This document shows positions 39,456-43,264 of a stretch of 43,264 nucleotides of DNA, piece after piece; within the stretch, counting starts at the first letter, position 1, and each line of letters begins with the position of its first letter. The notes under the pieces are model-generated. The model had not been told where the DNA came from. It saw only the letters and a program-made list of their open reading frames with translations, and did not search any database. The position numbers and the translations under genes were made by a program. Source of the DNA: Escherichia phage Minorna; the sequence record NC_048172.1, one strand, 5' to 3'.

Positions 39456-39800
39456 TCAGCGCGCATACCACGCAGAGAGCTGTCGCTGCTTATAGTATGA
39501 GCGCACAGCCGCCCTAAATCTTGTATACGCTCCACGATACCCATACCGTAGCAGTGCTGCGACCACATCGAACGCAATGTGCTCTTGCAATCTGCGCGCG
39601 GCAGACTCTGTATACTCTCGATAGGTTGTGAGAACAGTGCCAGTACCCTCTTTTCTAACGCGGAGTAATCGACGCTCAACTGGTACGATTTGCTTGAGTT
39701 CATTAGGAACCTCTTTGAATGTTTCCCAAGTGCAGCCGCACTTGCCTTGTGTTTCCAGCAAGCGCCAACACAGTAGCGCTGTTTCGTCTACTGTGAGCAT
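39456..39800 (-). CDS. hypothetical early protein (114 aa)
   Basis: Arg-rich small ORF in the early array. Confidence 0.5.
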   Translation of the reverse strand: MLTVDETALLCWRLLETQGKCGCTWETFKEVPNELKQIVPVERRLLRVRKEGTGTVLTTYREYTESAARRLQEHIAFDVVAALLRYGYRGAYTRFRAAVRSYYKQRQLSAWYAR

Positions 39801-39802
39801 AT

Positions 39803-40006
39803 TTAATCCTTGAATACTACGTTGCGGGCCACGAGGGTAATCCCACTACCAGCTACTACATCGCCAACTGTGGCATGTGCCTGCATCCACCCACCATACA
39901 CTTTGAGGTATAACTCGGCGGGTTTGTGCAGCGCGTTATGCAGTTGCACTCGGTACAGTACCCCGTACTGACTCTTGTACAAGTCATACTTAACTAGTTC
40001 ATTCAT
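39803..40006 (-). CDS. hypothetical early protein (67 aa)
   Basis: ATG overlaps the upstream stop in an ATGA arrangement. Confidence 0.45.
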   Translation of the reverse strand: MNELVKYDLYKSQYGVLYRVQLHNALHKPAELYLKVYGGWMQAHATVGDVVAGSGITLVARNVVFKD

Positions 40007-40182
40007 ATTACACCTCGCACATTAAAACGTTGACAGTAACCGCGCAGGGTCATACCCAGCCGCTTTGCTTGTTTCTCATAGTGCTGGCGCAGCGCTGCTT
40101 TTGCGGTGTACTCCCGCGCCAGTCCGTCGATTGTTGGTTGCTGCTTACGCATCAGCAGCACCTCAGGATTCTTTCCGTACAT
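40003..40182 (-). CDS. small early ORF (59 aa), absent from the ORF track
   Basis: ATG 40182 with GAGGT 6 nt upstream; stop overlaps the next start; fills an otherwise unexplained 180-nt gap in a tightly packed array. Confidence 0.3.
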   Translation of the reverse strand: MYGKNPEVLLMRKQQPTIDGLAREYTAKAALRQHYEKQAKRLGMTLRGYCQRFNVRGVI

Positions 40183-40189
40183 CTTTACC

Positions 40190-40453
40190 TCAAATATCGT
40201 TGTTGCTTACACCGTCCACGGTCAGAGTTACAGCGATGTTGGGTTCTTGCTCTCGCACCGCCTTAAGTAGGCGAATACCTAACGCCTTGCAACCTCCCTC
40301 TGGATTCTCAAAGAGGTCATACTCAGGGCGCGGTTGCTGCTCTTGATGCTGCCCTTGTTGAACGTGTACAGTGCAATAGGGCACTGGGTTATTCACGTCG
40401 TTGCCTAGCACCAGCATGGCGCTGGTAACAATGATGTTGACAATACTAGTCAT
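40190..40453 (-). CDS. hypothetical early protein (about 87 aa)
   Basis: Start set to ATG 40453 (GGAGA 7 nt upstream); track ORF extends to 40483 and would overlap the upstream gene. Confidence 0.45.
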   Translation of the reverse strand: MTSIVNIIVTSAMLVLGNDVNNPVPYCTVHVQQGQHQEQQPRPEYDLFENPEGGCKALGIRLLKAVREQEPNIAVTLTVDGVSNNDI

Positions 40454-40667
40454 AAAGTTGTCTCCAGTCGGTAACAATACCAAGATTCACGGCGTCCAGC
40501 AAAGTACGCGCCGCCATTTCGGTGCAAGTATCTACGAGATCTAAAGGGGATTCCTGATTGGTGTCGCGGTCAGAGAATATCATTACAGTGTAGTTGTACT
40601 CTGTATGCACTTGATTGCACCATATGGGCCAGAGTACATGCCCCGGATAGATTAGCTTTGCTTTCAT
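40446..40667 (-). CDS. hypothetical early protein (73 aa)
   Basis: ATG preceded by GAGGT and by the conserved dyad element 24 nt upstream. Confidence 0.5.
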   Translation of the reverse strand: MKAKLIYPGHVLWPIWCNQVHTEYNYTVMIFSDRDTNQESPLDLVDTCTEMAARTLLDAVNLGIVTDWRQLYD

Positions 40668-40690
40668 TTGAAACCTCGTTGTTAACGGTA

Positions 40691-40720
40691 TTCACATAGC
40701 GCCCCGCAGGACGCTATAGG
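40691..40720 (-). promoter_or_regulatory. conserved dyad element, copy 1 (atagcg-N10-cgctat)
   Basis: Plus strand ttcacatagcgccccgcaggacgctatagg; 26 of 30 nt identical to copy 2, with a compensatory pair change in the stem; lies in a 188-nt intergenic gap; a perfect TATAAT (minus strand, 40732-40727) sits just upstream. Confidence 0.5.
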
Positions 40721-40855
40721 CTTACCATTATACGTATTCTCCCAATCCCTCATAGTGCCACCTGTTATGGCGGCCTCGGGTTGGCACATCAAAGGCGTCA
40801 GAGTCGTTAGCTGCCGGAATCAGTGCTCACCACTTGATAGCTTGAATCTTATAAA

Positions 40856-41431
40856 TCATGCCGCTACCTTCAAAGTTGCATCCAGCACAGCGCGTACATC
40901 CACGCCCTGACTGATAAGCATAGATACCAAATCAGAGTCGCTCACCCCAGTTTCTTTAGCCTTCTTGATAGCGTTTTTAACGCGCCCCAGAGCTTGCAGA
41001 CGCACTGCATCGGCATCAAGGGCATCATTCTTCACCTGCTCTGCTTCGGCGTTGTACAGGGCCATACAAGCGCTATAGAAGCTGGCCACAATCACTTCAC
41101 GGCCTTGCTTGTCAGCTTGTTTATAGTCCAAACGCATAGTGTCCAGTTCAATGCCCAGCTTTTCAGCCGACGCATAGCACTTTTTAGCGTGGAATTCGTA
41201 CTTGCCCGATTCCTTGTTGAACTTGATAGGCAGCAGTGTACGCAGCACCATATCGAAATCGGCGGCATCACTGCGCTGCATATCCGTCGCCCAAGAAACG
41301 TTGCTACTAATCAGGCCGTGGAACAGAGCGCTGATAGTAATATTGCGTTTTGCTTCCACTACATCGCCCAGCGCCTTGCGAATGCTGCCAGCAGCGGTTA
41401 ATTTGAATACTCTACCAGTTGAATGAGTCAT
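40856..41431 (-). CDS. hypothetical early protein (191 aa)
   Basis: Second gene of the early region; GAGGT 5 nt upstream of the ATG; no recognisable motif. Confidence 0.55.
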   Translation of the reverse strand: MTHSTGRVFKLTAAGSIRKALGDVVEAKRNITISALFHGLISSNVSWATDMQRSDAADFDMVLRTLLPIKFNKESGKYEFHAKKCYASAEKLGIELDTMRLDYKQADKQGREVIVASFYSACMALYNAEAEQVKNDALDADAVRLQALGRVKNAIKKAKETGVSDSDLVSMLISQGVDVRAVLDATLKVAA

Positions 41432-41466
41432 GATGCACCTCTTTGATTGGTTGTTTAGGTAATTAC

Positions 41467-41496
41467 TTCACATAGCACCCCATAGGATGCTATAGG
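41467..41496 (-). promoter_or_regulatory. conserved dyad element, copy 2 (atagca-N10-tgctat)
   Basis: Plus strand ttcacatagcaccccataggatgctatagg; relative to copy 1 the stem changes G/C to A/T at paired positions; 36 nt upstream of the ATG at 41431. Confidence 0.5.
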
Positions 41497-41502
41497 CTGT
41501 AA

Positions 41503-41718
41503 TTAGCGTCCGAACTGCCCAGCAGTATACCAGCCTTGTGGCACCTTGCTACTTCCCCTTGTTTTGGTCTTACCGCGTACATTCGTACTAAACGTCGCAG
41601 ATTGCTTCATCCGCATATACCCAGCACGATTCAGCGCATCCCGGCGTTTTCTCAATTCAGGACCGGATAACTTCTCGAGTCCAGCGAACTGTTGTGCTAA
41701 CTTCTCACGATATTTCAT
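41503..41718 (-). CDS. first early gene, small basic protein (71 aa)
   Basis: ATG 41718 preceded by GAGGAGG; the track ORF (41733) begins at an in-frame TTG lying inside the SD, so it is over-extended. Confidence 0.5.
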   Translation of the reverse strand: MKYREKLAQQFAGLEKLSGPELRKRRDALNRAGYMRMKQSATFSTNVRGKTKTRGSSKVPQGWYTAGQFGR

Positions 41719-42266
41719 TGTGTACCTCCTCAAAGTTAATGATTAACGCCCTAGCAGTATTTAGCAGGACGCTAATTCTTAACCTTGTTGCCCACTGCAC
41801 TACCGTGGAACCTGTGGTTCAGGTCTCGGCGCTATTCTTTTAAGGGGCAGCGCCTCAGCGCCCCAGCCGTTTGTCATCTCGGCCCTTGATGTTACTTCTG
41901 AACTGCACTGATTATCTAGGATTGGTCGTCATCGTACCAGTCAAGGTACTGGGCCTCCCCGCAAATCAGCTTACTACGCCTTGCTTGCTTACTAAGTTAC
42001 TGCTTATCGCTCAGCTTGTCAATCACTTTCTTTCGTTCGGTCATCCGGTGCTTCATACGCCACCGGCAGCTACTGCGTGGGCTTTCCCTCCCTCCCGAAC
42101 TACTTTGATTTGTTTACCGTGTCCGCATACTCCGGTAAACGGTGCTTTCCCTAGCGGGTATCCGGCAGGCTTCGCGGTTCCTATCCGTTCCCCCTTTGGC
42201 GCGTCCTTGTATCACTCCCCGCCGTGTCGCGCCTTCCGTTGCGCCTCCTCCGTATTGCTTGGATTC

Positions 42267-42295
42267 AATCTAGCCTATGTTCTTCGCGGTGTCAA
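42267..42295 (-). promoter_or_regulatory. candidate sigma70-type early promoter (TTGACA-N17-TAGATT on the minus strand)
   Basis: Plus-strand tgtcaa at 42290-42295 and aatcta at 42267-42272; correctly oriented and spaced for minus-strand transcription toward the early genes. By-eye hexamer match only. Confidence 0.25.
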
Positions 42296-42499
42296 CCCTT
42301 TTTGTTGAGTATATAACCCTTCACACTATCTAGCCTTAATCCGGCGGAGTCTCCCGACTCTGCCCCGTTCAGCGCCTCAGCGCCTCCCGGTGATTGAACT
42401 ATAGCGCCAATAAACCAAAGGAAGCAAGCACTTTTTTAAACTTTTTATCACTAGGAGCAAAAAGGGTAAGCAGGGCAATGATTTAGCCAATGCCTCCAT

Positions 42500-42549
42500 T
42501 CTAGGGATAGCTCTAGGGATAGCCCAATACTAGCCAATACTAACTAATA
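42500..42549. repeat. tandem 12-mer tctagggatagc x2 followed by ccaatacta(g/a)-type tandem units
   Basis: Plus strand tctagggatagctctagggatagc then ccaatactagccaatactaactaatac. Confidence 0.85.
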
Positions 42550-42771
42550 CCATTTAACGCTACACAAAGCAGAGCGCAGTGACGTAACGGGAGTGGAGTC
42601 ACGGAGCGATGCGGTGACTGTGTAGGTAATGCTTACTCCCTACGGTCGTAATATAGGGCATTACTAGGGGATACTAGTGAATAGTAGTAAGTAGTATGTA
42701 TCTAGTGCCCTAAAACCCTCCTACTCGTGTAACATCATTTCTAAATAGCTTTCGAATGAAAGTAAGGGGAA

Positions 42772-42792
42772 AGGGATAGCTCTAGGGATAGC
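42772..42792. repeat. second copy of the gggatagc-tctagggatagc repeat
   Basis: Plus strand agggatagctctagggatagc, about 270 nt from the first copy. Confidence 0.85.
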
Positions 42793-42879
42793 AAAGGATA
42801 ACGCTAGGTGGCGGATAGTGGAAGTGCGCCCTAGTGGGGAGCGCGCAGCGTAGCATATAATCGGCACAATGTAAAGCAC

Positions 42880-42913
42880 TAGAGATAACCCTAGAGATAG
42901 CTCTAGAGATAGC
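42880..42913. repeat. variant repeat ctagagataaccctagagatagctctagagatagc
   Basis: Same CTAG-(G/A)GATA(G/A)C unit family with G to A variants; agagataaccctag recurs at 43051-43064. Confidence 0.85.
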
Positions 42914-43050
42914 ATATAGACGCACTAGCAGCGCACTGGGCGGCCCACTCGGCACATACTATGGCCCACTACTGGCCCACTGGGCGGCCCGCTAGAGGTC
43001 CGCAAAATAAGCAAGGCAGAGCGCACCTCTACGCCCCACAGAGAGCACGC

Positions 43051-43091
43051 AGAGATAACCCTAGTGCCCCTCAGTGCCTCCCTAGTGCCTC
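43051..43091. repeat. tandem ccctagtgcc-like units
   Basis: Plus strand agagataaccctagtgcccctcagtgcctccctagtgcctc. Confidence 0.8.
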
Positions 43092-43187
43092 TACGAGAGG
43101 CGCATAGTGATAGGCATAGGGTTACCCTAGTGATAGCCATTAAGGCGCGCAGGGAGCTTCTGCGGCCCTCCTAGAGCGCCCTCAGCT

Positions 43188-43211
43188 GGCCATCTAGACG
43201 TCTAGACGGCC
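43188..43211. repeat. 24-bp near-perfect palindrome (ggccatctagacgtctagacggcc) at the extreme end
   Basis: Perfect 12-bp core ctagacgtctag at 43194-43205; one mismatch in the outer arms; immediately followed by a C13 homopolymer (43210-43222) and a ccccc-tat-gggggg inverted repeat (43241-43254). Confidence 0.85.
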
Positions 43212-43264
43212 CCCCCCCCCCCTCCTTTATACGCTAGGCACCCCCTATGGGGGGCAATTGGGCG

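Follow-up and report, generated by a model that had tools for sequence, protein, structure and literature searches.

The question raised by the end of the genome record of Escherichia phage Minorna (accession number NC_048172.1; the whole stretch of 43,264 nucleotides (nt) that was analysed is called the window) was what fills the long DNA upstream of gp1, the first conserved early gene. A preliminary description of the window had placed about 1.5 kb of non-coding DNA there, together with two sigma-70-like sites as candidate host promoters and a repeated motif; the distance from the window end (43264) to the gp1 ATG (41718-41716) was measured as 1,546 nt on the minus strand. The region quite probably represents the early control region at the leading end of a KP34-like genome, in which tandem host promoters (designated PA, PB, and PC) would precede a leader RNA containing a pseudoknot, in a T7-like build. 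The promoter reading of both earlier sites was supported by matrix ranks, by conservation in relatives, and by an earlier genus-level prediction, and the earlier interpretation was incomplete rather than wrong: PA and a phage-polymerase promoter had been missed, and the leader was a conserved structured RNA, not a spacer.

The window was a KP34-like Autographiviridae (Drulisvirus-type) genome in reverse orientation, so that the minus strand carried its genes and signals. Over its last 1.9 kb, the window aligned with the left ends of Escherichia phage EC22.5-2 (88%) and Shigella phage SFN6B (85%), and also with the left ends of approximately 230 Klebsiella Drulisvirus records, adjoining the annotated terminal repeats; the homologous stretch corresponded to nt 1-1800 of linear records with annotated terminal repeats, which is the T7-type arrangement. 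The control region lay ahead of the first early gene on the same (coding) strand, where the leading end of the genome is.

Host promoters were sought with (i) a consensus scanner over 39500-43264, in which PB was the only match, and (ii) a position-weight matrix (PWM) from published hexamer frequencies, applied to 86,466 positions on both strands, in which PB and PC ranked first and third on the coding strand and second and fifth of all positions, and PA (10.1 bits) ranked 20th on the coding strand. Two sites as good as PB plus PC were found in only 3 of 2,000 shuffles of the 1.5-kb region. The first earlier site, TTGACA-N17-TAGATT at 42295-42267, was present as described (10 of 12 scanner matches) and is PB; the second TTGACA was present with a -10 as weak as claimed, and it lay at 42022-42017, one base off the position 42023-42018 given for it. 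A check by promoter software, which the preliminary description had proposed, bore out both sites by PWM and only the first by scanner. PB and PC each had a perfect -35 TTGACA, and all three sites had, at 16-18 nt spacing, a -10 whose second base was A and whose sixth was T (TAGATT/N17, TAACTT/N17, and TATAGT/N18 in PB, PC, and PA, respectively); transcript starts were predicted near 42391 for PA, 42260 for PB, and 41988 for PC. TTGACA occurred four times on the whole coding strand (approximately 10.6 expected; nine on the other strand), two of the four being those of PB and PC, a scarcity consistent with counter-selection of chance strong -35 elements within genes.

The conservation of these sites was assessed in 50 loci, including 40 from IMG/VR that were collected via the neighbouring protein gp2, independently of the promoters, and 10 from GenBank. 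PB was found in 45 of the 50 and PC in approximately 39. Around PB, a block from approximately -8 of the -35 element to approximately +8 was nearly invariant, and similarity collapsed right after the predicted start. PC kept TTGACAAG and GTAACTTAG in relatives, with a spacer that differed at at least 8 positions yet was always 17 nt and with an upstream flank unrelated between phages; retention of hexamers and spacing in the face of diverging spacer and flank is the pattern expected of a promoter. PA was compared across approximately 40 relatives: its hexamers and the sequence 3' of its -10 were invariant, 4-5 spacer positions varied, and base composition switched exactly at this site, the purine share rising from 46% to 63% and the C/G ratio falling from 1.03 to 0.67 (genome-wide 0.84).

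Eriksson et al. (2015; PMC4411677, Table 3) predicted TTGACACCGCGAAGAACATAAGCTAGATT and TTGACAAG...TAACTT as host promoters of five 'Kp34likevirus' phages; PB and PC corresponded to these two recurrent entries, PB with one base different. That list was made in silico with up to 3 mismatches and lacked PA (TTGCTT-N18-TATAGT), the first promoter listed there for SU552A was a different upstream site not conserved in Minorna, and the study held nothing on RNA structure (PMC4411677). The GenBank records of SU552A, KpV475, and KpV74 also annotated PB/PC-type promoters. Judged from these sequence features, PB and PC look like real, ordinary host promoters already predicted for the genus, with PA as an addition.

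Downstream of PC, the early operon's 5' untranslated region (5' UTR) was a conserved structured RNA of approximately 270 nt. Among the full-length matches listed, this leader was 87-93% identical, and the whole left end was 77-88% identical. Folding of the single sequence gave -94.9 kcal/mol (z score -3.2). Alignments of 25-28 leaders, used for the inspection of compensatory changes and for RNAalifold, displayed many compensatory substitutions, and RNAalifold returned 9 pairs with two-sided changes. A long-range helix UCAGU/GCUGA, likewise proposed by RNAalifold, was rejected: it displayed one-sided changes only, and its partner was absent in Loshitsa2 and phiKMV.

The centre of the leader was an H-type pseudoknot composed of stems S1 and S2 and loops L1 and L3, the order of segments in 41864-41825 being GGGGC, GCUGA, GGCGCU, GCCCC, UUAAAAGAAU, AGCGCC, and GAG. 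It accounted for one copy of the repeated motif, which the preliminary description had located in the 41840 and 42364 regions and which proved to be an exact 15-nt repeat GGCGCTGAGGCGCTG (plus strand CAGCGCCTCAGCGCC; repeat family D8) whose only copies in the window were those at 42384-42370 and 41862-41848 (approximately 0.004 exact 15-mer repeats expected by chance in 2.8 kb, as an estimate). The downstream copy comprised part of S1, all of L1, and the whole 5' strand of S2, and the GGCGCU of its second half paired with AGCGCC 20 nt further on, not with its own first half. A local GCGC-UGAG-GCGC hairpin within the repeat was rejected accordingly: in KP34-type sequences the second half changed to ACAC and the first half stayed GCGC, with the compensation found 20 nt downstream, and A-C mismatches were common for this hairpin in the upstream copy.

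The pseudoknot was tested by covariation in two sets of sequences. Among 13 diverse sequences, 98% of cells were paired, and all 11 pseudoknot pairs displayed two-sided changes (slid controls 33-49%; matched by 0 of 500 shuffles). Among 37 distinct sequences, pairing was seen in 98.4% of the S1 cells and in 100% of the S2 cells, and covariation was seen at five of five S1 pairs and six of six S2 pairs (slid controls 35-49%; again 0 of 500 shuffles). S1 and S2 crossed each other, both with compensatory changes. The covariance model R1 was built from S2 and two downstream stems, and S1 was left out, so the pairing of S1 was an independent test; R1 matched the window once (103 bits, E about 1e-26). 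In total, two-sided compensatory changes were found at 17 of 20 pairs, and the presence of G-U pairs fits an RNA of the minus (transcribed-sense) strand, not duplex DNA or an antisense RNA.

These data bear on the possibility that the conserved blocks serve the DNA at the genome end (as ejection stop, packaging site, or replication origin), with hexamers and pairings as by-products. The region did adjoin the terminal repeat and CTAG-rich repeat arrays, PB was conserved over its whole length, and phiOL at the T7 left end is linked to replication and packaging. Such a role is nevertheless highly improbable: the two-sided changes speak for RNA of the transcribed strand, as do the G-U pairs, which the opposite strand would have as A-C mismatches, the promoter hexamers and spacing were conserved where the spacers diverged, and equivalent promoters are active in phage LUZ19 (PMC10914365).

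The RNA reading was also compared with known families. Rfam 15 gave no match to the window leader up to E = 10 and none to the leaders of nine diverse members up to E = 5, no tRNA or tmRNA was found in the leader, and no literature on a pseudoknot leader in Autographiviridae was found. The pseudoknot leader matches no Rfam family or paper found and is new relative to the predicted promoters.

The leader family was found well outside Drulisvirus. BLAST with the leader located the module in Pectobacterium phages PP16, PPWS2, and Rambam (Corkvirinae, Kotilavirus) and Slant and CB5 (Corkvirinae, Phimunavirus), in Erwinia phage Loshitsa2, in Aeromonas phage Ahp1 (Melnykvirinae), and in Vibrio phage Ph19S9E2, and a separate model match located it in phiKMV (nt 1391-1483, 38 bits; S1 GGGU/ACCC, GCUGA, and S2 AGACUC/GAGUCU); its members accordingly belonged to Slopekvirinae, Corkvirinae, Melnykvirinae, and Krylovirinae (phiKMV) plus unclassified Erwinia and Vibrio phages. 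Between groups the stems were wholly rewritten: (i) S1 occurred as GGGGC/GCCCC, GGGGU/ACCCC, GGGAC/GUCCC, GGGGAG/CUCCCC, UGGCGU/GCGCCA, GGGCA/UGCCC, CCCGC/GCGGG, and GGCGA/UCGCC, and (ii) S2 occurred as GGCGCU/AGCGCC, GACACU/AGUGUC, GACUCU/AGAGUC, AACCCU/AGGGUU, GAGAUU/AAUCUC, GACCCU/AGGGUC, and GACUUG/CAAGUC; L1 GCUGA, the GAG after the 3' strand of S2, and UCCACGGUnnUGCAGUGG were fixed. On 88 IMG/VR stretches, R1 gave true matches of at least 45.8 bits and chance pattern matches of at most 21.5 bits, with one match per phage; over all searches the limits were at least 38 bits and at most 26 bits, respectively. R1 found no module in T7 nt 1-1500, in the first 3 kb of VP93, or in LIMElight.

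LIMElight and ten of the gp2-anchored Drulisvirus loci had an alternative leader instead of the pseudoknot module. This leader, GAGGCGAGAGCAGCUCGCUCC...GGCGCGGAGUGUAUCCCGC, was observed in Drulisvirus (loci L016, L023, L027, L028, L030, L032, L033, L037, L039, and L045) and in Pantoea phage LIMElight (L091:1270-1330), and it displayed compensatory changes of its own (GCGAG/CUCGC to GCGUG/CACGC). On this sequence evidence it may be a functional substitute for the pseudoknot module.

To find counterparts in cellular organisms, the two invariant blocks were searched for in 100,044 genomes of bacteria and archaea. The 28 matches (many in Burkholderiales, e.g., Acidovorax) all scored at most 25.9 bits, within the chance range, so a host or prophage homologue was rejected, there being no sign of one. 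The pattern GCTGA-N38-52-CCACGGTNNTGCAGTGG did recur in Acidovorax, Cupriavidus, and Ralstonia more often than by chance, with R1 scores at chance level (Acidovorax loci L160, L166, L169, L173, L174, L180, and L181), and it probably stems from a conserved coding stretch in some unrelated gene.

The spread of the leader across phages of hosts from Klebsiella to Pseudomonas, Aeromonas, and Vibrio would suit an RNA that senses a ligand or cell state in the manner of a riboswitch, or a decoy that acts in trans, at the first moment of infection, and so would its absence from Rfam. A compact H-type pseudoknot with an invariant loop and an A-rich third loop is also typical of several small riboswitch aptamers. 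This is still a rather improbable role, since no adjacent expression platform was seen (no terminator and no sequestered Shine-Dalgarno sequence), no related RNA was found in bacterial genomes, and no candidate ligand can be named.

The position of the module relative to promoters was surveyed in 38 module-bearing leaders, including those from phages of Pectobacterium, Erwinia, Aeromonas, Vibrio, and Pseudomonas, with sites of at least 12 bits counted on the same strand within 700 nt upstream. All 38 had one to five such sites, and each had a site of the TTGACA-N16/17-TAnnnT type. In the promoter nearest to the module, the -35 was TTGACA in 35 of 38 and the spacer was 17 nt in 35 of 38; the -10 was always TAnnnT, in 16 versions, and ended at a modal distance of 116-126 nt before the module. 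The upstream sites of phiKMV overlapped three of its four annotated putative promoters.

This constant setting, with the module always 80-270 nt behind a strong host-type promoter, invites comparison with processive antitermination or anti-pausing in the manner of HK022 put, in which the leader would act in cis on host RNA polymerase and let it cover approximately 20 kb to the phage RNA polymerase gene, which is late in phiKMV/KP34-type genomes. A phage promoter was present just after that gene, at 21754-21739, and it implies a long way for the host polymerase; the module occurred in phiKMV-type phages including phiKMV itself and was not found within the first 1.5 kb of T7, a phage with an early polymerase gene; and the invariant single-stranded GCUGA, GAG, and UCCACGGU suggest binding of a conserved host macromolecule. 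On the other side, the scan detected no intrinsic terminators 3' of the leader within the stretch that it covered, coupling to translation normally shields such operons from Rho, the presence or absence of the module follows plain phylogeny equally well, and VP93, LIMElight, and some Drulisvirus phages have the same genome layout and lack the module. The put RNAs of HK022, moreover, are two stem-loops and not a pseudoknot. Antitermination by this leader is accordingly considered unlikely.

At its 3' end the leader closed with an extended hairpin that abutted the gp1 ribosome-binding site: approximately 22 bp, with a lower stem of 9 bp separated by a 2x2 internal loop from an upper stem of 11-13 bp. 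An equivalent hairpin of 16-25 bp with unrelated sequence was found at the same spot in most related leaders, including those of PP16, Loshitsa2, phiKMV, and the most divergent metagenomic members. The shape of this hairpin, together with its position like that of T7 R0.3, suggests that it is cut by RNase III.

The leader could also be read as holding a translational element, with the pseudoknot serving as a standby or ribosomal protein S1 landing site, or as an operator for an early protein such as gp1, to tune the first gene. The pseudoknot was indeed located in the gp1 5' UTR, approximately 110 nt upstream of a ribosome-binding site abutting a very stable hairpin, and gp1 homologues accompanied the leader in Drulisvirus and a Kotilavirus; the leader pseudoknot of T4 gene 32 is a precedent for a translational role. 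A pseudoknot-dependent standby site, a second precedent, is documented for tisB (PMC7708055). The Shine-Dalgarno sequence of gp1 was almost entirely unpaired in the predicted fold, however, so that translation does not seem to need a standby site to rescue it; moreover, a different and farther gene follows the leader in Aeromonas phage Ahp1 and in phiKMV, and gp1 has no known RNA-binding domain. A translational function is doubtful on balance.

The course of events proposed for the early control region is as follows. After the leading DNA end enters the cell, host RNA polymerase would start at PA, PB, and PC and transcribe the early genes, so that every early transcript would carry the same folded leader of approximately 270 nt: short hairpins at the 5' side, the H-type pseudoknot with invariant GCUGA and A-rich L3, two small stems, and the hairpin of approximately 22 bp. 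Host RNase III would most likely cut the terminal hairpin, as at T7 R0.3, giving the early mRNA a defined and efficiently translated 5' end and freeing the leader with its pseudoknot as a stable RNA of its own; being rich in purines and poor in C, the leader would also be a poor Rho substrate. Among the functions considered, a stabilising or processing leader acting in cis, whose 5' part may persist as a small RNA, is the most likely, and the put-like, translational, and sensor or decoy functions are less likely. A broader proposal is put forward tentatively, as possible: the leaders would form an undescribed phage RNA family, whose core binds a small molecule or a conserved host machine (an RNase, RNA polymerase, or ribosome/S1), thereby controlling the first step of infection, for example, by raising the processivity of host polymerase until the distant phage polymerase gene comes within its reach or, after release by RNase III, by acting as a free regulatory or decoy RNA.

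Several observations weigh against the early-control-region reading. As for the promoters, the number of promoter-like sites was not above that in shuffles (1 versus 3.7 +/- 2.4 expected), and the sites stand out by quality, placement, and conservation, not by number; the -10 of PC (TAACTT) and the -35 of PA (TTGCTT) each matched the consensus at 3 of 6 positions; PB was the only site reported by the consensus scanner; approximately 11 of the 50 loci had no recognisable PC; KP34 itself was given only PB by Eriksson et al. (PMC4411677); and no published 5'-end data were found for this phage or any Drulisvirus. PB was conserved over the whole 45-nt block including the spacer, beyond the needs of a promoter, which could reflect another constraint or recent recombination. 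As for the leader, the pseudoknot module folded as a single sequence gave no signal (z score +0.2), so its case rests on covariation; the different leader of some Drulisvirus phages and LIMElight implies that the pseudoknot RNA is replaceable; and cleavage by RNase III was argued from hairpin shape and position only.

Further features of the region were located upstream of the leader (Table 1). A candidate phage-polymerase promoter, TGATGTTACACGAGTA, was found upstream of the three sigma-70-type sites. Lu et al. (2019; PMC6834552) defined the strong promoter of KP34 RNA polymerase as the 16-nt T(A/G)ATGTTACAGGAGTA by 5' rapid amplification of cDNA ends (5'-RACE) and in vitro transcription and placed copies of it at three sites in the genome, one of them in the left non-coding region, as in Minorna. 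Compared to the left-end copy of KP34 (G-variant, nt 475-490), TGATGTTACACGAGTA had one difference (C for G at position 11), and two perfect copies of the KP34-type promoter at 21754-21739 and 10177-10162 mirrored the other two KP34 sites.

Table 1. Features of the left-end control region of phage Minorna in window coordinates (PWM, position-weight matrix; R1, covariance model of the core module)
Feature	Position	Strand	Composition	Evidence
Candidate phage-RNA-polymerase promoter, counterpart of T7 phiOL	42722..42737	-	TGATGTTACACGAGTA	Match to KP34 promoter
Putative host promoter PA	42398..42447	-	A-tract 42447-42431; -35 TTGCTT 42427-42422; 18-nt spacer; -10 TATAGT 42403-42398	
Upstream repeat copy	42370..42384	-	GGCGCTGAGGCGCTG; approximately +8 to +22 of the predicted PA transcript	
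Hairpin between PA and PB	42343..42364	-	GGCAGAGUC[GGGA]GACUCCGCC	Compensatory variants in relatives
Putative host promoter PB	42267..42295	-	TTGACA-N17-TAGATT	Scanner 10/12; PWM 15.5 bits; conserved
Variable purine-rich insert between PB and PC	42023..42260	-		Sequence comparison
Putative host promoter PC	41994..42022	-	TTGACA (42022-42017)-N17-TAACTT (41999-41994)	PWM 13.4 bits
Conserved structured leader RNA, 5' UTR of early operon	41719..41988	-	approximately 270 nt	Conservation, fold, covariation
5'-domain hairpin	41934..41949	-	GUACC[UUGACU]GGUAC	Compensatory U-A to C-G and G-C to A-U (RNAalifold, pairs 26-44 and 27-43)
Core RNA module	41788..41870	-	Covariance model R1	103 bits, E about 1e-26; only match in window
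H-type pseudoknot	41828..41864	-	S1, L1, S2, L3	Covariation
Pseudoknot S1 and L1	41844..41864	-	S1 GGGGC 41864-41860 / GCCCC 41848-41844; L1 GCUGA 41859-41855	
Pseudoknot S2 and L3	41828..41854	-	S2 GGCGCU 41854-41849 / AGCGCC 41833-41828; L3 UUAAAAGAAU 41843-41834	
Module hairpin, 3' of pseudoknot and GAG	41824-41810	-	ACCUG[AACCA]CAGGU	
Module stem	41808-41805 with 41796-41793	-	CCAC/GUGG	Part of R1
Terminal extended hairpin, candidate RNase III site	41731..41787	-		-27.7 kcal/mol; z score -5.3
Shine-Dalgarno sequence and start codon of gp1	41716..41731	-	GAGGAGG 41731-41725, preceded by UUAACUUU; ATG 41718-41716	

The upstream repeat copy was only partly conserved, many relatives having a variable or CTAG-rich version instead, and the exact identity of the two copies was peculiar to the Minorna lineage. 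Two further roles for it were tried and rejected: a second copy of the RNA module (R1 had none near PA in any phage) and pairing with the 3' strand of the pseudoknot (the upstream copy stayed unchanged when S2 changed). The hairpin between PA and PB had variants, read by eye, in which GAGTC/GACTC became GAGCC/GGCTC and GGC/GCC became GGT/ACC.

The distance between PB and PC ranged from 66 to 346 nt among relatives, and the window had a 238-nt version. The intervening insert was absent from Drulisvirus loci and matched non-coding sequence from Escherichia phages phiKT and PGT2 at 91% identity; it was 68% purine with only 10% T, and no significant fold was found in it (z score -0.06). Such a mosaic insert (42262-42024) suggests recombination hot spots right after the PB start and right before PC.

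The gp1 product was a very basic protein of 71 amino acids (aa), and its start codon matched those annotated in homologues; the UUAACUUU before its Shine-Dalgarno sequence resembles the 'epsilon' translational enhancer of T7 gene 10. The gp1-gp4 products belonged to PHROG families without known function and had no Pfam match, and no RNA-binding domain was found in gp1 by PHROG and Pfam comparison. Small open reading frames (ORFs) upstream of gp1 on the minus strand look non-coding, given that relatives had a 7-nt indel inside the 40-aa ORF at 42499-42377. Among minus-strand ORFs of at least 30 aa, only a 31-aa GTG frame overlapping the gp1 start touched the leader; it was open in the Slant and CB5 annotations only and was not a conserved frame, and substitutions in the leader followed pairing, being compensatory, and not a codon pattern. 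A 145-aa ORF on the opposite strand (41871-42308, plus strand), which spanned the hypervariable insert and had a TTG start, was judged spurious from these features, no protein search having been made for it. Public records such as that of Klebsiella phage AttikonH1 (150-1439) had small 'hypothetical proteins' annotated over the non-coding left end, and in the Slant and CB5 records the first coding sequence ran through the pseudoknot module; given the RNA covariation and the non-triplet indels, these annotations are probably spurious.

The far left end (43264-42500, minus strand) was crowded with short CTAG-centred repeats (AGGGATAGCTCTAGGGATAGC and relatives; 12-nt spacing in places), e.g., at 42503-42523, 42772-42792, 42881-42913, and 43051-43064; CTAG occurred 21 times in these 764 nt and 142 times genome-wide, an enrichment of approximately 8-fold, and the repeats recall the short repeat arrays adjoining the terminal repeat of T7. 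At 43222-43210 (minus strand), some 45 nt inside the contig end, was a run of 13 G. Because the other end of the window had no second copy of a terminal repeat, the assembly probably does not show the real ends of the genome.

A 32-nt repeat family (D3) was present among the early genes at 41498-41467 and 40722-40691 (minus strand), and it contained the motif AGCCTATAGC(R)TCC-loop-GGG(Y)GCTATGTGAA at 41496-41471 (after gp1) and 40720-40695 (before the fourth early ORF). This motif was predicted as a phage promoter by Eriksson et al. (PMC4411677) and was inactive in vitro with KP34 RNA polymerase (Lu et al. 2019; PMC6834552). It formed a 9-bp hairpin with a variable loop (TACG, TATG, or TGCG), and one stem pair in its 19 distinct copies was G-C in 13 and A-T in 5. 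Its features are more those of an RNA hairpin located between early genes, perhaps a processing or stability site, than those of a promoter.

Confirmation of the promoters would improve annotation and provide strong, compact promoters for engineering in E. coli and Klebsiella. The pseudoknot RNA is located in the first host-made transcript of phiKMV/KP34-type phages, including therapeutic Klebsiella and Pseudomonas phages, and its non-coding conservation across phages with widely diverged proteins implies an important step in host takeover. The module is short, well defined, and easily mutated, and the family deserves an Rfam entry, which would stop spurious small-ORF calls across the module.

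The early control region of Minorna was finally compared with known systems. The T4 gene 32 operator, the tisB standby site, and HK022 put are all cis-acting structured 5' elements behind a strong promoter, as is the Minorna leader; no sequence or architectural match between them and the leader was established.

T7 and Minorna shared the same order of elements at the left end: a phage promoter, three tandem sigma-70 promoters of the TTGACA-N17-TAnnnT type, a leader, and a hairpin before the ribosome-binding site (phiOL at 405, A1 at 498, A2 at 626, A3 at 750, and gene 0.3 at 925 in the T7 record). They differed in that (i) no sequence homology was present, (ii) the Minorna leader was longer, being approximately 270 nt from the last promoter and up to approximately 670 nt from the first, (iii) it contained the pseudoknot module, which R1 did not find in T7 nt 1-1500, and (iv) RNase III cleavage is proven at T7 R0.3 and inferred in Minorna.

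LUZ19 and phiKMV belong to another subfamily and infect another host, and, as predicted for Minorna, they have several strong host promoters clustered at the left end ahead of the first gene (PMC10914365). In LUZ19, a close relative of phiKMV, ONT-cappable-seq mapped five such promoters (P002-P006) at the left end, and the four sigma-70-like ones among them gave reporter activity in E. coli (Putzeys et al. 2024; PMC10914365); by analogy, this mapping would be the best available experimental support, if indirect, for the Minorna promoters. phiKMV further carried the same leader module, located 125 nt behind its last TTGACA-type site, with an L3 of only 4 nt and with a hairpin inserted in the loop of CCAC/GUGG.

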